Shown here piece after piece: positions 33,923-64,000 of a stretch of DNA of 64,000 nt (positions within the stretch are counted from its first letter, which is position 1; the number at the start of each line of letters is the position of its first letter). Below the pieces are notes generated by a model, which worked only from the letters and a program-made list of their open reading frames with translations, was not told where the DNA came from and searched no databases. The stretch comes from Gammaproteobacteria bacterium (GTDB lineage Bacteria > Pseudomonadota > Gammaproteobacteria > DASZBR01): assembly GCA_033763845.1 (NCBI GenBank), contig JANRJR010000016.1, positions 7,568-71,567 of the forward strand. The letters are read 5' to 3'. The translations under genes were made by a program, and so were the position numbers.

Positions 33923-34888
33923 ATGATTTCACCCGATAACCGCACACGAATACAGAGCATTCTAAATGATGCGCTAACTAATGCGATGAAGAACAATTCA
34001 GGTCAATGTGCCACTTATATTCCAGAGCTAGCCAATGTCGATCTCGAAATGACCATGGCTGCCATTACCTTTCGTGATGGTGAGACCCTTACAGCCGGCG
34101 AAAACCAAGATTATCGCTTTACTTTACAGAGTGTGGCTAAACTAATTCTTCTTGCAGGATTATTAGAAGAATATGGCGAAAGCGATGTTTTCTCTTGGGT
34201 GGGATGTGAATCATCTGGCCATGATTTTTCTAACATTGTTCAACTTGAATCTTTTGGACCTAAACCGTCGAATCCGTGTGTAAACGCAGGTGCAATTGCA
34301 TTATGCAATCACATTCCGGGTGATACTGTTGCAAAACAACTAGCGTGGATAGATCAATGGATGGAGCGATTATTTGGCGAACCGCTTCGCATTAATCAAT
34401 CCGTTTTTGAATCAGAACGTACCACAGGTTACCGAAATTTTGCATTAGCGAATTTAATGAAAAGTAATGGCGTGATTACAAAAGACGTCAACGACGTATT
34501 GCGTTTGTATTTTAGCTTATGTTCTTACGAAGCAACCATCATACAAACCTCTCGTTTTTCATCTATGTTGGCGAATGGTGGCGTAAATTTTCAGGGAAAA
34601 CGCGTATTAACCAAACGCAGTGTACGAGGTGTTGTTAGCACAATGGCAACGTGTGGATTATATGACGAATCGGGACGGCATTTATTACGTACGGGGTTAC
34701 CTGCAAAAAGTGGTGTGTCGGGATTAATTATTGCAACTGCGGTTGGATTAGGTGGAATTTCTGTGTTTAATCCGCGATTAAATCCTAAGGGCGGCAGTGT
34801 ACGTGGACACAGTATGCTGGAATATTTATCCGCAAAATTAGGCTGGCATTTCGCAACACCGCGGAAATTAAAGTCGATCAAAACTTAA
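33923..34888 (+). CDS. glsA: glutaminase A
   Basis: 321 aa. Serine-dependent beta-lactamase-fold glutaminase motifs (QSVAKL, NAGAIA). Stop overlaps the convergent giant ORF stop. Confidence 0.85.
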   Translation: MISPDNRTRIQSILNDALTNAMKNNSGQCATYIPELANVDLEMTMAAITFRDGETLTAGENQDYRFTLQSVAKLILLAGLLEEYGESDVFSWVGCESSGHDFSNIVQLESFGPKPSNPCVNAGAIALCNHIPGDTVAKQLAWIDQWMERLFGEPLRINQSVFESERTTGYRNFALANLMKSNGVITKDVNDVLRLYFSLCSYEATIIQTSRFSSMLANGGVNFQGKRVLTKRSVRGVVSTMATCGLYDESGRHLLRTGLPAKSGVSGLIIATAVGLGGISVFNPRLNPKGGSVRGHSMLEYLSAKLGWHFATPRKLKSIKT

Positions 34889-37800
34889 CGCTCACTTCTG
34901 TGACCAAAATCACGGGGACTGCCTGGGTCCACGGCTTTCTTAGCCGTGTCTTCTTTAGCCAGTGTATTTCTGTTTATTTCAGCTTGCATCAACTCTTTAG
35001 CTATTTTTTTCAACTCTGCACTACCTTCATAGGTAATATCACTCGCTTTCTCAGGCTTAAATCTTTCGTAGGTTTCTTTAACCATTTTTTGAACAAGTTC
35101 CCTCATTTGCTGATCATTCAATTTTTCAGTGTCTTTGGGTTGCGTGTAACTCACGCTATCCTTTTTAACCACAATAACATGGTCATCCGATTTTAAGGCT
35201 TCTGTTATTTTTTCTTTACCCGAAATTTTTTCAAAGCGATCATCTGGATTAATTTCGGAGGGCCGGTAGACAAAAGCAGCATCTTGTTTTGGTTTTTCTA
35301 ATTTACTCGTTTCTGTTTCTTCAACGACCATGGAGATACGAACTACTTCGACACTGACAGTTTCAGTTTCCATCGAAACATTGACTCTTACAGCTCTTCG
35401 AGCTCCAAATAGAATATCGCTTCTTGCTTCAGCCACAACCTCATTCTGTTCAACATATCTTTTACGCATGTCATCTAAACGTTTAAACTCCGCATCTAAC
35501 GATTTAACTTCCTCGTTATCTTCGGGCAAATATTCATAAAGTGCATCACGCGCTCTTGAAACATCAGCGGTATAATCATCAACTTCTTTTATCGCTTTGT
35601 TTATATCATCCCATAGTGTATTCAAATCTTCATACGTTTTTGCTGAGTCAATTCTCGCAGCAAAATCCTGTTCCTTGATGGGTGATTTGTTTTGGGCAAT
35701 CACGGCAACAAAAAATTCTGACCTCAATTCATTGATACCCGGAATTGCTTCGGCATACTTTAAAAATGCAGCATATTTTTTCAAGAATTCATTCGGCATT
35801 ACATCTTCGCCAGGAGGAATTTGTGCATTAATATCTTTAACAGCTTTTTCTACTGCAGCAAGATCCACACCTTTCGTCAAATCAATGCCTTTACGTTCCA
35901 ATTGAAATAACATCGCGTCTAGTAATATTTTATTTTCTATACCTGCCAATATTTGTGCATTACTAGAAGCTTCGACACTTCTGACAGCTTGTTTAGTAGG
36001 TAATTTCGGCAACACCCGTTTTCTAGCAGGCGTTTCTCTTTCAAATTCATCCAGCGTTCTCAACAATGAAGCTTCAGCCGCATGCGCTTTTCTTTCTAAT
36101 TCAGCCGCTCTTGTTGCTTCAACCATTGCATCTTCTGCTTTAGGTGCACCTTCACGCATCGCTTCAGCTGTCCTAACAACACTTTCTTCAACGAGTGTAC
36201 GATCACGCTTTAACAATAATTTGAAAAGCTGACGCAATCCCGGCTTAATTTTCCATTTCGAAACCAATGAATCTCTTTTATCCGGGTCATGCCCCCATGG
36301 GTTATTAACGACACTTCCTCGTGCGCCGGGACGGCTTCGGGTATATCCATCCATCCCTGCACCTTCTTCATGAATAACTTGTAGATGATCTTCTACATAT
36401 TTTTCAAATCCGGGAGTTGTTGAAAGCAACGGATCACCGTTATGCTCTTCTTCATATTTTAACGCCAATTTATCATGGTTGAGCGACCAGTTCGTTCTAT
36501 CGTTTGTACTCTTGCAATTTTTTGCGACAATTACACCCGCTAATTCATTTGAACGTGCCATTTGTGTAGCAACGACATAGGAATATCCAGCTTCAATATA
36601 TTTACCTGAATAATACAACCGTTGAGCATCAACGAAATATTGTAGTTGTTTATTGTTTTCAAATTCAGCAGGGATTTCAGGCGCATTTTTTGCCCATTGG
36701 GTTTTCACATCCGCATATAATTTTTCATACTGATCGGCTAATTTCGCTTCAAATTTTCTGATATTTTTGCGTATACCCTCCACGACTTTTTCCTGAACCG
36801 CTGGACCCGAGGTAACCGTAACAAGTCCTTTTAATGCTTCGTATTGTTTTCTTAATTCTTTTTCTAATTCTTTTATTTCGGGCGTTGCTTCACGATAGCA
36901 ATTTTCTTTAAGCCAGGTTCCTAATTCAGGAAATTGTTTTGTTAGTGAGTCATACTGATTCTCAATATATTTCGCAAATCCACGCGCATTAATTAATCGT
37001 TGTTCTTTTTGATTTGCGCGTCCTTTTAGTTTTTTCGGATCTTTTACAGAAATATTAACGTGATTAATATTAACAGTAACTTTTTTACCGTTAACCTCTA
37101 ATGTTTCTCCATTTACCATTTCTAACGCAACATGATGGTCACGCAGCTGTCGTGTCTCACTGGCAAATCCCAAGAAACGACCCAACGTTGCTTTTTCCGT
37201 TGGCGCGTTCATCAATGGCGCTACCAAACTGGTCGATTGAATGGTTACCGTCTGACCATCTTCCACATCCATCAATTTTAATAAATTGGTAATATCATCT
37301 TTTGCATTTTCATAATTTAAACGTCGTCGTTGAATGGCCTGCTCTTTTTTACTTAACTTCAGAACAGAGAAACTTACCGCACGTGAAACCGTGGCTTGAA
37401 CTTTAAGTTGATTATGCTCATCCACATGCCCGATCACTTCTAAAACACTGTTGGGATTTGTTCCTGGATTTTCCGATGCACGAAAGTCACTGGGAAAACT
37501 TATTTTTCCTTTCGGAATATGAACATTGACTAAGCCATCCGCCATCACGTGAATTACGGTGGGTCGACCACGACGCATTAAAAGAAACTTCGATTTATTC
37601 TCAAATTCTTTAATCGCTTTTGACAAAGAAGTATTGGGAGCGACAATACCCAACAATTCTTTTTCCATATTTAGAAACATTTCTTGTGCTTTAACTGTCA
37701 TTCCTTCAAATTCTTTCCCGGCTGCATTACCAATACGTGCGAAATCAGAACCTTCACCACACATTGCAATATATCTTTCTTGAATACTATTTATTCTTCC

Positions 37801-40800
37801 TTGTTGTACCCCTAATGGATCTAGGTGGTATTCCCTTGCAACGTCCGCAAGAAATTTAATGCGTTCTCTTATATCTTCCACATTAATTGCATTACGTTCA
37901 TCTTCACCAAAATAACGAATAATGACCTCTCTAGCAGGCTCACTCGTTCCCTGAAAATCAGCAGAAATGCCCTCCAGTTGATCTCCCCTGAGCACAATCT
38001 TTCCGGTTTGCTCTGCTTGAAAGATATTGTCTGGGTGATGAAGAAGTTTTTGTAATTCGCTAGTCAGTGTTTCATATCGAGAAGGTTCGGGTTGCGCAGG
38101 ACGTTTTGCTCTCACCCAAGTTTGAGTGTTTGGTTGGGCAGCCGGGACATCTCCCTCTTGTAATTCGTTTAGCTCTCGTAATTCATCTTCAGAGATTTCA
38201 ACTCGTTCATATACAGCATCAGCTTTTCTTTTTTCTTTTTGTGCATCGTCACGCATTTGCTTTAATTTATCAGAGAGCTGCTTAACATGTTCATCTACAA
38301 CTTGTTTTTCTGCTATCAACGCCTCACGCTCAAGTGGAGTCGCATCTGTCATCTTTTTTATCGCATTGGCTAGTTCGAGTTGATATCTTATTGCTTTAAC
38401 CAAATTATCATCTATTGTCGCCGGAACATTTTCTGGATTGGTTTCGTAAGAAATATCGCCTTTAACAACAGCGATAATGATCGCTTTTAGCACCTCTGGA
38501 GAATGTTGGACTCCAACTTCATCGATAACAAATTTTTGAAATTCTGCATACTTTTCTAAAAAAGCATCCGGCATTTCAGCGTTTTTACTGATCAGCAAAT
38601 TTGCATTAATAACGAAGCCTTTGTCATAGCTAAAATAATTTAGCTGTTTTTTAACTTCTTCAAGCACTTTATTCAAAGCTTGGTTTTGAATTCCTTTTTT
38701 TTGAGAAACATACTCAACTCTTGCGACTATCAATTTTTTTAATTCTAAACCATAGCTATCTAACATTTGTTTAGGTGTTTTTAACCCAATCACCGCTAAA
38801 TCAACTGTAGCTGAGTCTATTCCCTCAGCCCTTAACGCATTACGAGCTGCCCCAAATCGATCAACAACAGACAACGCTGCTCTTGCTTTCAATAAAGCGC
38901 CAATAAGTTGTATTTTTTTATCAACGCTGCTTTCTGTTTTTCGTAAAAATTCCTCCGCCGCATCACACGCAGGCTTATCTCGAACAATTCCTGCTTGCCC
39001 TCCATGCTCCTGAGAACCAATTGCAAAACTCTTCTTAAGAATATCTCTAAAAGTATAAGCCTCTACTTCACGTTGATATGTTCCAGCTTCTTGTCCTTTT
39101 GATCCATCCGTTTGTTTATAGAAACTTTCATACACAGGATCGGTAGGCTTAAAATAATCTGAAAATATCTGACCAAACTCCTGCGCATCAAGAGAATCAA
39201 TGATTTGATCTAATTCCGCCTCTTCTGCTTTTAAATATGCATTAACTGCGTCAGTAGAAGGAAACATCCCTTGAATCGCTTCAACATTTAACCCCTCCGT
39301 TTGGTAATGTTTTGCCAATACGGTAACAATTCGGGTCATTGTCTCTACAGGATAATAAAGCGGATCGTTGCGCTCTTCTCTTTCTATGTTAGCTTCGTCG
39401 CGTATTTCATCCAACAGACGATTGACTCTAACTAAATCGCGACCTTCTAATACTTCCTTAGTTGCAACTAATTTTTCTAATTCTGATAAAGGAGCATCCA
39501 TACCAAATAATGGTTTTTTACCCTCGGCCTTATTTCTTCCAAATATATTAGCGAAGATTCCTTTCTTAAGCGCTGGCGCTCCCGAAGAAGCAGGCACCAT
39601 ATCATTTGCATCTGCTATCGCGGCTGCACCACCCACGACCTCGTTAATACCCAAAGAATGTAGTTCTTTGTATTGCCTCTCTTCAATCTCAAATGCATCC
39701 GCAACCGTTGCGGAATATTCTTTTAAGAATTTTCTATAGTCTTCGTAGGATGGAGGCTCACCCTGAAATTTTTCGTTTAACTCCTCCACAACTTTATTCA
39801 ATTTATCCAAATCAGTTGAATTAATTAAATTCATCTTTTGGTAACTTAATTTATCTAGTAGCAATCCCCTCAATTCCGCGAACTTAACCTTATCAAAAAC
39901 TTTTTCGATCGCATCACGAGAAAACATTTCTTCCCCTCTTTGCGGTTTGGGTGACTCTGAAACCTTGCCCCAGTTTTCTAAATCTAATCCTGTGAAGCCT
40001 TCAATATCTTCAATATCTTCAATATATTTTGGAGGTCGTATTTCAATGTAGCTTTTCTCATCCAATGTAAACAAATCTGAAGCAATTGCTTTTATTTCTT
40101 TGGGTGCATTTTTAACCATTGCATCATAATTTCCAAAATTTGCCACACCCGAAGCTTTTGCAAGATGCTTTTCAATAAACCCTTTCAGGGCATCCGCTTG
40201 GTCGCGGGTTTTTACTTCCGGAAGCTTATTTTCCTTAGCCAATACTTCAATTTTTTCCAACAGAAATTCTTGTAATTTTTCATTTTTGAATTCCACTGCT
40301 TTCAACGCAACATAGAAATCTCCCTTGCACCATTGCCCCGATTTATTAGTAGCCGATTCGTAAATTGCATCCAATAGTTTGATTTGTTCACCAGTAACTT
40401 CTGGAATCTTTTTTAATCTATCGATTTGGGATGGATTCCATTTTAAATCTTCGATAAAACTGGGGTCTTTAAGCATTTCATCAAGTTGAGCACTGGTAGT
40501 AATTTTTTCAATAACCACGTCTTCAAATTGCTGCTTCAGGCGCGATATAAAACCTAGCTTTTGTTTATCAGTAAATATATCAAGGATACCCGATGTAATT
40601 ATCGCTAAACGTAAATCACGATTTCCAGTATCTGCAAATGCAGGAACATTCTCTTCATTATAGCCCGCCGCCTTATTAACCAGTTCTTCGATATGCTTGT
40701 GGGCGTCATCAAGATTTTTCTTAAGTACTTCTTTCGTTTCTTCTGAAGAAAGAATATCTTTCGCCTTATCAGGATCTAATAATACCTTTAAATAAACCTG

Positions 40801-51421: not shown

Positions 51422-54979
<3,558 letters not shown>

Positions 54980-55012
54980 TCAAGTCCATATTCATTCAAA
55001 ACAATCCGCTCA

Positions 55013-56092
55013 TTATACCCCGATTACACGTCCATGTTCCACGTGGAACAATGCCGGCTCAACAAAATCAATGCAGCCTCTCACCTCGTCGTAATCAATC
55101 GTTGTCAAAAACACCTGCGACTTAAAATCGCGCAGATGTTCGACCACGCAACGACGGTGTTTCGCGTCCAACTCCGCCGCAAAATCATCCAACAAATAAA
55201 CACACGAAACACCCCGACTGCTTTTCAACAACTGCCCTTGCGCTAAACGCAAAGCAATAACAACTAACTTTTGTTCCCCACGAGATAGCATCTCGCTCGC
55301 ACGACTCTCTCCACAACGAACCAACATCTCATCTCGATGAGGCCCATAATAGGTATGCTTAAGCTGAGCATCCCGAAAATAATTTCGCTCAAGCAACTCT
55401 GCAAGCCCTAATTCTTTCGACCATCCTCGCTGATACAATAACTGCAACTCAATCGAGGGAAGAAAATCTTTTATGATTAGCCCAAACAATTCAGACAGTT
55501 TTTCAACATAATCGCGGCGAAACACCGAAATTTGTTCACTGGCTTCTGCAAACTCATTATCCCAGACACAAACCTGGTCTTTTACATTCCCCAACTTCAA
55601 GGCAGCATTCCTCTGCTTCAAAGCCCTTTGCCATCGTTGCCAAATATTCAAAAATGAATGTTCCACGTGGAACACTCCCCAATCAATGAATTGTCGCCGT
55701 AAGCGAGGAGACCCCGTTAACAACTCATCGCTATCGGGATGGATTAATTGTAGCGGCAATATTTCTGCAATTGCCGCAGCAGATGATACAGACTCACCAT
55801 CGAGACGAAGCGATGTCTTTCCTTCTCGGTTTTTTTCTACGCCCACTGCACGAACATTTTCTTGCTGATAAAGGCGCGCAAAAACGGAAAGCGAATCGGC
55901 TTGATGATAAATGACTGGCATAACACTGTGATGACGAAAAGATCGATTGTGACTGAGCAGATACAACGATTCCAGAACGCTGGTTTTTCCACTGCCATTT
56001 TGCCCAAAGAAAACATTAAACCCAGGCGATAACGTTAATGAAACAGACAAGAGATTTCGAACAGCATTAATGTCACACTGAAAAAACCGCAT
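55013..56092 (-). CDS. recF: DNA replication and repair protein RecF
   Basis: 359 aa. Walker A GQNGSGKTS. ABC signature and Walker B (VYLLDDFAAELD). dnaA-dnaN-recF-gyrB synteny. Confidence 0.94.
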   Translation of the reverse strand: MRFFQCDINAVRNLLSVSLTLSPGFNVFFGQNGSGKTSVLESLYLLSHNRSFRHHSVMPVIYHQADSLSVFARLYQQENVRAVGVEKNREGKTSLRLDGESVSSAAAIAEILPLQLIHPDSDELLTGSPRLRRQFIDWGVFHVEHSFLNIWQRWQRALKQRNAALKLGNVKDQVCVWDNEFAEASEQISVFRRDYVEKLSELFGLIIKDFLPSIELQLLYQRGWSKELGLAELLERNYFRDAQLKHTYYGPHRDEMLVRCGESRASEMLSRGEQKLVVIALRLAQGQLLKSSRGVSCVYLLDDFAAELDAKHRRCVVEHLRDFKSQVFLTTIDYDEVRGCIDFVEPALFHVEHGRVIGV

Positions 56093-57196
56093 TTAAAGTG
56101 ACATAGGCATAATAACAAACTGTGCTTTTTCTAAGGCTTCAGAATAAATTAACACACTGTTATCTGCGTTGGATAAAGTAAATATAACGTCGCCTGACGG
56201 CACTGCCGATAGCACATCGAGTAAATAGTTCACATTAAATCCCATCTCAAGAGGCTCACCCTCGTAATTCATAGAGATCTCCTCTTTGGCTTCTTCTTGC
56301 TCTGTATTCGTAGCGGTAATTAACAATATTCCCGGTGAAAAATTTAAACGGACCGCATGATACTTTTCGTTAGTTAAAATAGCGGCACGCGCCAGCGCAT
56401 GTTTCAGCGTATCTCTATCCACCAATGCTTTTTTATTTCCACCTTGAGGTATAACCCTACGATAATCCGGGAATTTCCCTTCAATTAGTCGAGATACAAA
56501 CGTGAACGTGTCCGACTCAAGTCGAATGGCATTCGCGCCAATGTGCATTGAAAGCATTTTTCCTTCATCTTTGGATAGTAGCCGCAACAATTCAAAAACA
56601 CCTTTTCGAGGTAGAATAAATTGAGTAGGCTCTGTTAATTCAGGAAAATCCATTTTACGCACAGCTAACCGATGCCCGTCCGTTGCAACAGAACACATAC
56701 TCCCAGCATTCGCCTCAAAAAATAATCCATTCAAATAAAAACGCACATCTTGTTGCGCCATTGCAAACGATGTCGATTCTAACAGTGCTGCCAAATCAGA
56801 TTGTAAACACGTGACATTCTTTCCTGAGGCTTCAAACGCCGCCAGCGGAAAATCAGATGAAGGCAATGTCACTAATGAAAAGCGACTTTTCCCTGCAATT
56901 ACGGCTGCTTTTGTACCGTCTAATTGAAAACAAATATCCGTATTTTCAGGTAAGGTTCTACAAATATCCATTAACTTTCGACCCGAAACAGTAGTTTCAA
57001 ATGACTGCTCGTTTTCAATTAGTTCTGCATGCCCTGTTAATTCAATCTCTAAATCAGAGCCCACAAGTGATAAAAGATTATTGTGCGCACGAATGAGAAC
57101 GTGAGACAAAATAGGTAAACTTTGTCGCCGCTCTACAACGCCCGTGACAAATTGAAGTCCTTTTAACAACTGATCTCGTTTGGTGGTAAATTTCAT
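56093..57196 (-). CDS. dnaN: DNA polymerase III beta sliding clamp
   Basis: 367 aa. Three-domain clamp. Immediately downstream of dnaA. Confidence 0.95.
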   Translation of the reverse strand: MKFTTKRDQLLKGLQFVTGVVERRQSLPILSHVLIRAHNNLLSLVGSDLEIELTGHAELIENEQSFETTVSGRKLMDICRTLPENTDICFQLDGTKAAVIAGKSRFSLVTLPSSDFPLAAFEASGKNVTCLQSDLAALLESTSFAMAQQDVRFYLNGLFFEANAGSMCSVATDGHRLAVRKMDFPELTEPTQFILPRKGVFELLRLLSKDEGKMLSMHIGANAIRLESDTFTFVSRLIEGKFPDYRRVIPQGGNKKALVDRDTLKHALARAAILTNEKYHAVRLNFSPGILLITATNTEQEEAKEEISMNYEGEPLEMGFNVNYLLDVLSAVPSGDVIFTLSNADNSVLIYSEALEKAQFVIMPMSL

Positions 57197-57206
57197 GGCA
57201 CAAATC

Positions 57207-58508
57207 CTACGTGGTTAATATTCGCATTAAATTGAGATAATCTTCTTTTATTGTACTTGATATTTCTCTAAATTCCGCAACAGCTCGTGTTGCATGCAAT
57301 ACGGTTGTATGGTCTCGTCCACCAAACGCTTCACCTATTTCTGGCAAGCTGTGAGTAGTGAGCTCTTTTGCCAATGCCATCGCAACTTGTCTGGGACGCG
57401 TTATAGAACGACTACGACGCTTAGATAATAAATCAGACACTTTGATTTTATAATATTCTGCAACAACTTTCTGGATATTTTCGATAGTCACCATTCTTTC
57501 TTGTAATGCAATTAAATCTTTTAGCGCTTCTTTTGCTAAAGATAAATCGATTTCTTTACCCAAAAAATTCGAGCTTGCAACAACCCTTTTTAGGGCGCCC
57601 TCTAATTCTCGGACATTAGAACGAACTCGTTGTGCAATAAAAAAAGCAACTTCTGAAGATAAAAAAGTATTAGATTGAACCGCTTTATTCAACAAAATTG
57701 CTACCCGTGTTTCCAATTCCGGGGGCTCAACTGCAACCGTTAACCCCCAACCAAAACGTGACTTTAAGCGTTCTTCCATCCCTTCTACTTCTTTTGGAAA
57801 ACGATCGCAGGTAAAAATCATTTGCCGACCTGATTCCAGTAAGCAGTTAAATACATGAAACAGCTCCTCCTGGGATCTCTCTTTTCCTGCAAAAAATTGA
57901 ATATCATCAATAAATAATGCATCTAATGAACGATAGTAGTTTTTAAATTGCGTAATGGTATTCGTTTGCAACGCACGAATCATTTCAGAAACAAATCGTT
58001 CAGAATGTAGGTAAAGTACTTTGAGTTTCGGATTTTTTTTAAGCATACCATTACCAACGGCTTGCATTAGATGCGTTTTCCCCAACCCTACAGAACCATA
58101 TAAAAACAAGGGGTTATAGGCTTGTCCAAAATTTTCAGAAACTTGGATAGCTGCAGCTTTTGCTAATTGATTAGATTTTCCTTCGACAAAATAATCAAAG
58201 TTGAACATAGGGTTTAGATTTGTTTGAAAAAACTCCGGGTCGCCACTGTTTTCCACCCTTTTATCCGCTTCTTTTTGCGGAAAGCCTACAGTTACAATAA
58301 TGTCTTCACCCATTAATGATTTAATTTTAGAAAGAAATTTCGACGAAACACGTTCAGTAATAAAGTGATTAGGCGCAAATAAATATAATTTTCCGTCATG
58401 CGAATGAAACTGAAGTGGCTTTATCCACGTATCAAATTCTTGAGAGCTCATCTCTTGAGAAAGCGCTGAAAGACAATTTTCCCAATTTTTATCCGTAATC
58501 ATTGACAT
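57207..58508 (-). CDS. dnaA: chromosomal replication initiator DnaA
   Basis: 433 aa. AAA+ Walker [11 protein letters not shown]. Box VII. C-terminal DNA-binding helix-turn-helix ([23 protein letters not shown]). Confidence 0.96.
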
Positions 58509-58515
58509 AGAAACC

Positions 58516-58524
58516 TGTGGATAT
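58516..58524. promoter_or_regulatory. DnaA box (8/9 match, ATATCCACA on minus strand)
   Basis: TGTGGATAT immediately upstream of the dnaA start. Confidence 0.5.
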
Positions 58525-58583
58525 CTCTGTGAGTAACAGTGGAAAACTAGCGTAACATAACTAAAGTTTTTCTACGACAGGAT

Positions 58584-58592
58584 TTATCCACA
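58584..58592. promoter_or_regulatory. DnaA box, perfect consensus TTATCCACA
   Basis: Exact 9-mer in the dnaA 5' intergenic region. An AT-rich stretch follows at about 58690-58770. Confidence 0.6.
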
Positions 58593-58780
58593 AGTTATTC
58601 ACGGCCATATCACCTACTTTTACATAACTTATATCCCCATGTAAATTATTGTTTTATATGAAAAAAATTACGGTATTCACAGAAAACGGTATCCTTCATC
58701 ATCAATACATATAAATTAATATTATTAATAATAATATGATAGGATAAAAATCTATTATTTAGACATTACGCGAGGAATCT

Positions 58781-62116: not shown

Positions 62117-62882
62117 GCGATTAGAGGTCGAAATATTATTGTCGCATGTGTTGAATAAACCGCGCGTATATTTATATTCTCACCCGGAAGAACCGCTCAC
62201 CTCTGAACAGTGTGATCAATTTAACCAATTAATCAAAAGGCGTGAACAAGGTGAGCCATTGGTTTATATCACAGGAAAAACCGAATTTTATGGATTAGCA
62301 TTTGACATCACTCCAGACGTTCTTGTTCCTCGCCCAGAGACAGAATTATTGATTGATTACATACTGGATAACCTGAAAGTTAAAACAGCCTCTGTGCTTG
62401 AATTAGGAACAGGTAGCGGGATTATTGCAATTACCTTGGCGAAATATAGACCCGATTGGAATATTACAGCGACAGATATTTCAGCGGGAGCTCTAACTAT
62501 TGCGAAACGTAACAGTCATTTTCATGATGCAAAGACTATTCGATGGATTGAGTCGGATTGGTATAGCAATATCAAAGTCGAGAAATATGACTTGATCATC
62601 AGCAATCCCCCTTATATTGCTAAAGATGATCCCCATTTGCGTGATTTATCCTACGAGCCTCATGGGGCGTTAATTTCTGGGCACGAAGGTTTAGACGCTA
62701 TAAAAAAAATCATCAAAGGCGCAACAGGTTATCTTGTTCAGGAAGGAGAGATTGTTTTGGAACATGGGTACAATCAGGCCGAGGCAGTGCAGAATTGTCT
62801 TCATGAACATGGCTTTAAAGACATCAAAACCCTGGATGATTTAAATCACCAACCACGGGTAACAATTGCAACGCATCCGTAG
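62073..62882 (+). CDS. prmC: release factor glutamine N5-methyltransferase PrmC (HemK)
   Basis: NPPY motif. [14 protein letters not shown] motif. Start placed at MNIKQI (ORF track 62040); 3' of prfA overlaps. Confidence 0.9.
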
Positions 62883-62915
62883 TTTTGGTGTATACTCGCA
62901 TTTTTGGAGAACTTT

Positions 62916-63533
62916 ATGGCGAAGCGCAGTACAAAAGGGAAAAAAACAAACTCAAAAAAAACGTTTCCCGTGAAGCGAAGCAAACCTGTCACCAAGAAAA
63001 AAACGCCTGCCAAAAAGCCAGTGTCTCAACCTAAAAAGAAGAAATCCCTTAAGAAAATATCGACAAAAGCCACAAAAGCAAGTCTTTCTGAAAAAGCCAA
63101 AAAGCTAAAACAACTTCCATCGCCTTTTGTCAGCCATGTTAAGCCCTATCAAGCAGGTAAAAACGAAGAATACATGAACAATGCTCAGTGTGAGCATTTT
63201 AGAAAAATGTTATTATCCTGGAAACGTCAATTATTGCATGAAATGGAAAGAACTGTGCACCATATGCAGGATGATGCAGCGAATTTTCCCGATCCGAATG
63301 ACAGAGCTACACAAGAAGAAGAGTTCAGTTTGGAGTTGCGCGCGCGTGATCGTGAGCGTAAATTAATTAAGAAAATCGATGAGACAATTTCTCGAATCGA
63401 TAACAATGATTACGGTTACTGTGATGCCTGTGGTGTGGAAATTGGCATTAGCCGATTGGAAGCGCGTCCTACTGCAACTTTATGTATTGATTGTAAAACC
63501 ATTGATGAAATTCGTGAGAAGCACTACAGCTAA
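62916..63533 (+). CDS. dksA: RNA polymerase-binding transcription factor DksA with Lys-rich N-terminal extension
   Basis: C-terminal DksA core colinear with E. coli (PYQ....EEYMN.AQ..HFR..L..W...L......V.HMQDDAANFPDP.DRA.QEEEFSLELR.RDRERKLIKKI; C4 zinc finger CDACGVEIGISRLEARPTATLCIDC). Preceded by an extension of about 55 aa (KKTNSKKTFPVKRSKPVTKKKTPAKKPVSQPKKKKSLKK). Confidence 0.85.
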   Translation: MAKRSTKGKKTNSKKTFPVKRSKPVTKKKTPAKKPVSQPKKKKSLKKISTKATKASLSEKAKKLKQLPSPFVSHVKPYQAGKNEEYMNNAQCEHFRKMLLSWKRQLLHEMERTVHHMQDDAANFPDPNDRATQEEEFSLELRARDRERKLIKKIDETISRIDNNDYGYCDACGVEIGISRLEARPTATLCIDCKTIDEIREKHYS

Positions 63534-63547
63534 ACGAGGAGTTTAAG

Positions 63548-64000
63548 ATGGTTCATGGTCTTCTGCATTTTTCTTTCTGGGGCATGGTCCTCTACACACT
63601 CATTTTGACCCAAATCACGGTCATTAGTGTGACCATTTATCTTCATCGGTGCCAAGCGCATCGCGCGTTAGAACTACACCCTGCCATTAGTCATTTTTTC
63701 CGTTTTTGGCTGTGGTTAACCACAGGGATGACAACGAAAGCGTGGACTGCAATACATCGCAAACATCACGCTAAATGTGAAACGGCAGAAGACCCACATA
63801 GCCCCGTATTATTAGGTTTAAAAACAGTATTGTTGAGTGGCGCTGAGCTTTATCGTAAAGAAAAGCGCAATCAAGAAACGTTGGTGCGTTATGGTCAGGG
63901 TACACCCGAAGATTGGATCGAAAAAAATATTTATGAAAAACATAGCGTGATGGGTGTTGTGATCATGTTATTGACTAATGTGATGTTGTTTGGATTCCCG
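63548..64000 (+). CDS. membrane fatty-acid desaturase family protein (partial, runs off window end)
   Basis: TM helices plus His boxes HRCQAH and HRKHH typical of integral-membrane desaturases. 3' end truncated by the window. Confidence 0.55.
   Translation, partial: MVHGLLHFSFWGMVLYTLILTQITVISVTIYLHRCQAHRALELHPAISHFFRFWLWLTTGMTTKAWTAIHRKHHAKCETAEDPHSPVLLGLKTVLLSGAELYRKEKRNQETLVRYGQGTPEDWIEKNIYEKHSVMGVVIMLLTNVMLFGFP

Follow-up and report, generated by a model that had tools for sequence, protein, structure and literature searches.

A Lys-rich N-terminal tail of histone H1-like composition on an orthologous gammaproteobacterial DksA

DksA has a central part in regulating growth rate, survival under starvation and virulence, and mechanistic work on it has been done nearly all on the tail-less E. 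coli protein. The window, meaning the whole stretch of 64,000 nt of gammaproteobacterial DNA that was analysed, contains a dksA gene whose product appears to begin with a long region rich in lysine. The locus raises the questions of whether this region is translated as part of DksA, how widely such extensions occur, and what one might do on a factor that acts on RNA polymerase. An earlier note on this DNA had described an ORF at 62904–63533 with a Lys-rich peptide, and both are present in the sequence.

The DksA core and its extension

The gene and the parts of its product are located as follows.

62916–63533, + strand: dksA coding sequence, 205 aa and a TAA stop codon, with the ATG at 62916 as the most likely start.
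62916–63101, + strand: Lys-rich tail, aa 1–62, with 37 % K, 40 % K+R, a net charge of +24, one acidic residue and a single TPAKK.
63102–63179, + strand: segment aa 63–88 (KLKQLPSPFVSHVKPYQAGKNEEYMN), equivalent to residues 8–33 in the N-terminal part of E. coli DksA and gap-free when aligned with 1tjl.
63186–63398, + strand: DksA coiled-coil domain (Pfam DksA_N, aa 91–161), located from the profile match and the helices in the AlphaFold2 model.
63291–63308, + strand: coiled-coil tip motif DPNDRA (D126, D129 and A131, equivalent to E. coli D71, D74 and A76).
63420–63494, + strand: C4 zinc finger, C169-x2-C172 ... C190-x2-C193 (Pfam zf-dskA_traR; E. coli C114, C117, C135 and C138).

The protein matches both Pfam families expected of a DksA, namely DksA_N (PF21157; aa 91–161, E = 5.7e-35, 119.8 bits against a cut-off of 27) and zf-dskA_traR (PF01258; aa 165–195, E = 4e-12, 46.3 bits against 24.9). 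It also scores 172.2 bits on the NCBIfam equivalog model TIGR02420 'dksA' (cut-off 115.5), and is below the cut-off of the narrower enterobacterial-type model NF008045 (219.7 against 289). The best match among solved structures is E. coli DksA (1TJL; RNA polymerase complexes 5VSW, 5W1T, 7KHE and 7KHI). Window aa 63–203 align with E. coli residues 8–148 without a gap over 141 positions at 65 % identity, and the identity rises to 69 % from the PYQ motif onward. In an AlphaFold2 model made from a 45-sequence alignment, the coiled-coil helices are at 89–122, 127–143 and 145–162 with pLDDT of 76–86.

The positions named as functionally important in DksA are the tip aspartates, the zinc finger, the C-terminal helix and the R91–K98 group (PMC9239242, PMC12282333), and the DxxDxA motif of the tip has been named critical (PMC9239242). 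The DxxDxA columns are invariant across 45 homologues. Residues R146, K149, L150 and K153 correspond to the ppGpp-site residues R91, K94, L95 and K98 of E. coli (R97, K100, L101 and K104 in L. pneumophila numbering; PMC12282333) and all are identical, as are R184 and K194 (E. coli R129 and K139). The zinc finger has the CxxC-17-CxxC spacing, and the C-terminal helix of E. coli DksA is kept. The gene order hemA-prfA-prmC-dksA-desA is also kept in relatives. Judged by its sequence, the core is a canonical gammaproteobacterial DksA, orthologous to the E. coli protein, and the earlier description of an intact core, colinear with E. coli and with tip and C4 zinc finger in place, holds over the 141 gap-free positions.

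E. coli DksA has 7 residues before the aligned region and the window protein has 62. The additional residues number about 55, as previously estimated, and are Lys-rich and predicted to be disordered. The tail (aa 1–62) consists mainly of K (23), S (8), T (7), A (5), P (5), V (3) and R (2), with one acidic residue. Its description as almost entirely K, P, T and S was slightly overstated, since these four make up 69 %, or 82 % when A and V are added. Across the window's 62 ORFs of 100 aa or longer, the peak Lys fraction over 50 aa is 0.40 in DksA and 0.22 in the runner-up, and the median is 0.12. Residues 1–72 of the AlphaFold2 model have pLDDT of 34–42 and no secondary structure, and the tail is predicted to be intrinsically disordered.

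With 37 % K, 40 % K+R, D+E at 1 of 62 residues and pLDDT <50, the tail has a composition like that of the C-terminal domain of histone H1. To this extent the earlier comparison with H1 and Hc1 is supported. A Pfam search with the tail alone returned no family at E ≤ 10, Hc2 included. The Ala-rich tails of two relatives (P0010 and P0056) score 28.1 and 26.2 bits on HC2 (PF07382), against a cut-off of 40. Repeated units of the S/T-A/T-A-K-K or S/TPKK type were not found in the window tail, which has the one TPAKK only. Tandem Repeats Finder (TRF), applied to the tail DNA, gave nothing beyond a weak array of 20 nt at its 3′ edge (63091–63110; A-rich 8-nt unit AAAAAGCC, 2.5 copies, score 33), and for this reason we consider that the tail is not built of repeat units in the manner of DdbA or AlgP. 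As far as profile and composition searches can tell, the likeness to H1, Hc1 and Hc2 is compositional and not one of homology.

Translation of the tail and position of the start codon

Two features upstream of the coding sequence bear on where translation begins.

62883–62896, + strand: conserved 14-nt block TTTTGGTGTATACT, just 3′ of the prmC stop codon TAG (62880–62882) and containing a −10-like TATACT.
62906–62909, + strand: Shine–Dalgarno sequence GGAG, read from the sequence, 6 nt upstream of the ATG at 62916.

An open frame proves nothing by itself at this locus, because A makes up 48 % of the DNA at the tail and another frame also stays open over 49 codons. Six syntenic relatives (L081, L082 and L084–L087; L083 repeats L082), with DksA proteins 75–87 % identical to that of the window, were therefore compared with it. 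Only the DksA frame is stop-free in all seven sequences and the indels are multiples of 3, which rules out a chance open frame in A-rich DNA. The Nei–Gojobori pN/pS over the seven sequences is 0.044 for the core and 0.39 for the tail (pS 0.63, pN 0.24), the latter with synonymous sites saturated. It is 0.19 for the linker, aa 57–82 (LSEKAKK... up to the NEEYM motif), which roughly matches the segment aa 63–88. Although non-synonymous divergence is about 25 %, the K+R fraction in the first 62 residues is 0.40–0.42 in all seven. This pattern of substitution indicates purifying selection on the tail, with charge as the main property kept.

If the Lys-rich frame were untranslated, the true start would be internal, and the NCBI annotation of two close relatives, in which DksA is called at 158 aa (P0004) and 139 aa (P0009), could be read in this way. 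However, the starts of both calls are non-canonical in the sequences examined. The P0004 protein is 99 % identical to that of the window and its call begins at what is an ATA codon in the window (the P0004 codon itself being taken from the window sequence), and the P0009 call begins inside a conserved QLPSPF/QIPSPF linker at a position where full-length relatives have Leu or Ile. Gene calls from JGI, ENA and Logan for relatives are full length, 205–208 aa. No internal ATG, GTG or TTG is conserved in the seven syntenic sequences, and the first Met common to them lies inside EEYM. A start at the internal Met (MNNAQ...) had been argued against earlier on the ground that a conserved segment would be cut; this argument stands, as the Met falls within the conserved EEYM segment and cannot be the start, and neither of the two NCBI-annotated relatives starts there. 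With the reading frame, the Shine–Dalgarno sequence and the N-terminus all conserved, a tail pN/pS of 0.39, and a long DksA form proven in Xanthomonas (PMC5559785), an untranslated frame is extremely improbable. Conversely, the sequence comparisons make it highly probable that this is a genuine DksA with a translated tail.

The start codon is most likely the ATG at 62916 (MAKRS...) and not the TTG at 62904, the coordinate given earlier, because the TTG is not in frame in L081 and overlaps the Shine–Dalgarno sequence. Upstream of the core, no canonical start other than this ATG is common to all seven sequences. A GGAG(G)A Shine–Dalgarno sequence is kept 6–8 nt upstream of it in the six relatives, and the N-terminus MAKRS.KGK is conserved in all seven. 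Directly after the prmC stop codon, the 14-nt block (TTTTGGTrTATACT) is nearly identical in 7/7 syntenic sequences and may be the dksA promoter. A sigma-70 consensus scan upstream of dksA found no full canonical promoter. A scan of the whole window with Rfam at gathering thresholds gave no match, and thus no leader RNA upstream of dksA and no rRNA or tRNA.

Distribution of DksA tails and their charge

In a word-indexed homologue search, 117 of the 119 homologues listed had >60 residues before the core, rich in K together with A, T, P, S or V, and many carried a precomputed Hc2 match; this search is biased towards K-rich words. A query with the core only (aa 75–205) was therefore not left to a word index but run against 1.84 billion cluster representatives, of which the best 150 were examined. 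Tails were found on 66 of these 150 (49 with at least 25 % K+R and 17 moderately basic), a figure that reflects diversity and not frequency, as clustering at 50 % identity over-counts variable tails. A further 40 were short, and the remainder were apparent gene-call artefacts or lacked the anchor motif. The extensions in this set add 20–302 residues, with a median of 111.

A genome scan returned 80 gammaproteobacterial species-representative genomes, and about 28 of them have a long basic tail on DksA. These include metagenome-assembled genomes (MAGs) labelled Ectothiorhodospiraceae and Chromatiaceae and many other Gammaproteobacteria. In the same scan the DksA proteins of Methylococcales and Thiocystis are ordinary, at 140–146 aa with no tail. 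The best core identity among the 80 was 76 %, and no Legionella or Coxiella locus was among those returned. In a neighbour-joining tree of the core, which rests on about 130 residues and is indicative only, the tail occurs in several clades, with about five gains or losses. One locus, L019, was discounted in this count, as its over-extended Arg-rich frame is treated as an artefact and it was rejected as tail-bearing.

The tip aspartates of L. pneumophila DksA are at D77 and D80 (PMC12282333), only 6 residues beyond the E. coli positions, and this DksA therefore has no such tail. The suggestion in the earlier note that the extension might be specific to one lineage or to Coxiellaceae can accordingly be set aside, the tail being present in several clades of the core tree, in the Ectothiorhodospiraceae and Chromatiaceae MAGs and in Xanthomonas, and missing from L. 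pneumophila. Its proposed link to developmental compaction of the SCV/LCV type is likewise unsupported, as tails also occur in lineages with no known developmental cycle.

For 25 tail-bearing loci (24 distinct contigs) with a locus GC of 36–66 %, the K+R fraction of the tail is 0.39 ± 0.05 and does not follow GC (rho = −0.02). The Ala content of the same tails tracks locus GC (rho = 0.66, p = 4e-4). Lys is several-fold above Arg even at 60–65 % GC. As Lys is encoded by AAA and AAG, its maintenance at 30–40 % in GC-rich genomes points to selection, and there is strong evidence, drawn from these comparisons, that a Lys-based charge density is what selection maintains, and not the sequence.

As to the setting of the gene, the GC content of the window is about 40 %. 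The window also contains gyrB-recF-dnaN-dnaA, with three DnaA-box-like sites adjoining dnaA and a change in the sign of the GC skew there, which together place it at the chromosome origin. Among named GyrB sequences, those of Legionella species come closest (69–71 % identity), and an ORF of 3551 aa carries eukaryote-like Ras and RasGEF domains. Such domains are typical of Legionella-type effectors. A Legionella/Coxiella-related lineage is a reasonable, tentative assignment for the window.

Possible roles of the tail and comparison with known systems

In all likelihood the core works like that of E. coli DksA, binding in the secondary channel of RNA polymerase and acting with ppGpp. The coiled-coil tip (D126 and D129) would reach the active site of the polymerase, and the globular and zinc-finger part would sit on the channel rim and help to build the second ppGpp site. 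The tail would then project from the solvent-exposed N-terminus of the globular part. TraR works without a counterpart of the N-terminal half of DksA (PMC9239242), from which we infer that additions at the N-terminus should be sterically tolerated. By analogy with DdbA, the tail would most likely serve as an electrostatic tether, independent of sequence, to the nucleoid or to the DNA on either side of RNA polymerase. With such a tether, DksA would be more concentrated and stay longer near promoter-bound or transcribing polymerase.

A tether to DNA or the nucleoid is a reasonable reading, and DNA is the best-supported candidate ligand because of the analogy with DdbA, described below. It is not the sole candidate, as a polycation also binds RNA and polyphosphate (polyP). 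Many DksA proteins, among them those of E. coli, L. pneumophila, Methylococcales and Thiocystis, function with no tail, which makes the tail an accessory, and the processed form of DksA in Xanthomonas (PMC5559785) suggests that the tail may be removed in vivo. Taken as a whole, the statement that this is a genuine DksA whose translated, disordered and polycationic tail tethers it to DNA has, in our estimate and by analogy, about an even chance of being correct.

Part of the remaining probability belongs to a tail that binds polyP or RNA rather than DNA and on starvation draws DksA to polyP granules or condensates, so linking DksA to polyP metabolism. In P. aeruginosa, AlgP needs its H1-like, KPAA-rich C-terminus to support the organisation of polyP granules (PMC9239181). 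Strong polyP binding by Lys-rich sequences is described in PMC12077175, and DksA is named as a regulator of polyP accumulation in E. coli in the title of Gray 2019 (cited in PMC9239181 and PMC12077175). The marked excess of Lys over Arg, which persists in GC-rich loci, would also fit a dynamic interaction with a polyanion. Against this, nothing in the window connects dksA with ppk or ppx, and DdbA, the sole H1-like/DksA-like fusion to have been tested, was assayed on DNA and not on polyP; the sequence by itself does not decide the choice of ligand. We consider polyP or RNA binding a candidate reading, though a rather unlikely one.

The tail may instead be a handle for regulation or turnover, through which protease clipping or targeting, or modification of Lys residues, sets the level or activity of DksA. 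Such a role would suit a tail whose predicted disorder makes it accessible to proteases and whose best-conserved part is its extreme N-terminus (MAKRS.KGK in this clade and MA[AV]KKK in others), and Xanthomonas expresses both a long DksA and a processed variant (PMC5559785). However, about 40 % K+R held over 60–300 residues in many lineages exceeds what a degron needs, and a handle with no tethering function is unlikely. A neutral low-complexity expansion, tolerated at a permissive N-terminus, would account for the wide variation in tail sequence and length (about 40–300 extra residues), for the at least approximately five gains or losses on the core tree and for the many lineages that have no tail. 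It is nonetheless very unlikely, given a tail pN/pS <1, a charge density that is constant and independent of GC, the near absence of acidic residues, and Lys kept against a GC-rich mutational bias.

Returning to a tail that binds a polyanion, a broader proposal seems to us possible, if a little short of an even chance, namely that H1-like tails on canonical DksA form a widespread gammaproteobacterial module that couples the stringent-response factor to the nucleoid or to polyP and so alters both the sites and the strength of DksA/ppGpp action on RNA polymerase. Such a module would have undergone repeated gain or loss and been selected for Lys charge density regardless of GC, and the window would hold a compact low-GC example from a Legionella-like, probably host-associated lineage. 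If the tail does tether DksA to DNA or polyP, the amount of DksA effectively present at promoters would vary with the state of the nucleoid or of polyP in a large proportion of environmental and plant-pathogenic Gammaproteobacteria, and stringent control would be directly linked to chromatin-like compaction.

Annotation guided by homology truncates tail-bearing dksA genes (158 aa and 139 aa in NCBI, and 147 aa in Xanthomonas), and as a result this class is under-represented in curated databases. For the window itself the result is modest, in that one more member is added from an uncultured Legionella-like lineage and the link to Coxiella-type development is removed. The long DksA of Xanthomonas has already been verified and the DdbA analogue characterised, and Lys-rich DksA tails are common in environmental Gammaproteobacteria, although little studied; the tail is hence not unique to this locus. 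A search of full-text literature, with subscription journals mostly outside its scope, found no study on the function of Lys-rich tails of gammaproteobacterial DksA. Experimental work could reasonably be directed at the tail-bearing class in general.

Among known systems, Chlamydia Hc1 and Hc2 and P. aeruginosa AlgP resemble the window tail in their approximately 37–40 % Lys, their almost complete lack of acidic residues and their predicted disorder. They are stand-alone proteins of the nucleoid or of polyP granules, whereas the window tail is on an RNA polymerase factor and has no profile match.

A like architecture is seen in DdbA of Streptomyces coelicolor (SCO2075; Aldridge et al. 2013), an actinobacterial DksA-like paralogue that is distant from E. 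coli DksA (E = 8e-11, as given in PMC3643593). The H1-like N-terminal half of DdbA has been shown in vitro to bind DNA and condense it, and mutants lacking DdbA differ in nucleoid condensation and supercoiling responses (PMC3643593). Like the window protein, DdbA has a Lys-rich H1-like region at the N-terminus followed by a DksA-type domain in which a zinc finger and two aspartates at the tip are present. However, the DdbA tail contains five S/T-A/T-A-K-K pentapeptide repeats and the window tail is non-repetitive, and the DdbA core is a distant paralogue whereas the window core is an orthologous gammaproteobacterial DksA with 65 % identity to E. coli. On these grounds the two fusions are most likely convergent and of independent origin. 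The H1-like half of DdbA was called streptomycete-specific by its authors (PMC3643593), and at the level of architecture this is contradicted by the present data.

A further parallel is the DksA of Xanthomonas euvesicatoria. In PMC5559785, this protein is lengthened by proteogenomics from 147 aa to 256 aa, with the upstream peptide AAPAAAKPAAKPVASK detected and the first GTG confirmed as the start by start-codon mutagenesis, and a processed form is seen beside the long one. In the passages of that paper on the long form, the composition and function of the tail are not discussed. Like the window protein, the Xanthomonas one is a DksA from a gammaproteobacterium extended far at the N-terminus, in this case by a stretch rich in Ala, Lys and Pro, and automatic annotation had cut it short, as NCBI did for relatives of the window. 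The upstream peptide AAPAAAKPAAKPVASK places the Xanthomonas tail in the same class as that of the window. The two differ in that the Xanthomonas tail, from a high-GC organism, is Ala/Pro-rich and about 109 residues long, whereas that of the window, at about 40 % GC, has 62 residues with Ser, Thr and Val as filler. With its orthologous core and a basic low-complexity extension of at least 40 residues, the window protein joins an existing, widespread and under-annotated class of tail-bearing DksA.

Large ORFs and the probable origin

Five of the features in the window are as follows.
18912-21446, forward strand: large ORF, 844 aa.
21908-24499, forward strand: neighbouring large ORF, 863 aa.
34885-45543, reverse strand: giant ORF, 3551 aa, in which Pfam identified two eukaryote-like domains, a Ras GTPase at aa 50-149 and a RasGEF at aa 543-677.
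52556-58780, reverse strand: gene cluster gyrB, recF, dnaN, dnaA.
63548-64000, forward strand: DesA-family fatty-acid desaturase gene, incomplete, continuing past the end of the window.

The region containing gyrB, recF, dnaN and dnaA is probably the chromosomal origin, and lies approximately 4.4 kb from dksA. Three DnaA-box-like 9-mers are found at 58421, 58516 and 58584, the last of which is a perfect TTATCCACA, a sequence that occurs nowhere else in the window, and the sign of the GC skew flips at approximately 56-60 kb.

In the 3551 aa ORF, the remaining residues (approximately 2900) have no domain assigned by Pfam. This ORF resembles Legionella-type effectors, which is consistent with a host-associated lifestyle. 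For the 844 aa and 863 aa ORFs, the Pfam scan found no match at E <= 1e-5.

Immediate surroundings of dksA

The desaturase gene starts 15 nt past the dksA stop codon, and this pairing is retained in all of the syntenic relatives. As the pairing is conserved, the two genes may be co-transcribed.

Upstream of dksA, a 14 nt block, TTTTGGTrTATACT (62883-62896), is located directly 3' of the prmC stop codon, and is in the same position in the syntenic loci (L081-L087). It is nearly unchanged across the seven sequences, in which synonymous sites are saturated. The block may be the -10 region of the dksA promoter, or another regulatory site; a consensus promoter scan called no promoter at this block.

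N-terminus and start site of tailed DksA

Among the tail-bearing DksA examined (loci L001-L087 and homologous proteins P0241-P0389), conservation within the tail is strongest at the extreme N-terminus, where the motif is MAKRS.KGK in the clade that includes the window and MA[AV]KKK in many clades. The sequence MAVKKKAKAKA also opens a few DksA that are otherwise short (approximately 150 aa; L064 and L068), where it could be a tail remnant, a tail seed or a separate N-terminal signal.

The NCBI annotations of two close relatives of the window protein (62916-63533) lack the Lys-rich tail: P0004 is given as 158 aa and P0009 as 139 aa. The start used for P0004 corresponds to an ATA codon in the window, and that used for P0009 falls within the conserved linker joining tail and core. 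Pipelines other than that of NCBI give lengths of 205-208 aa. A mis-annotation of the same type in Xanthomonas DksA was corrected by experiment (PMC5559785).
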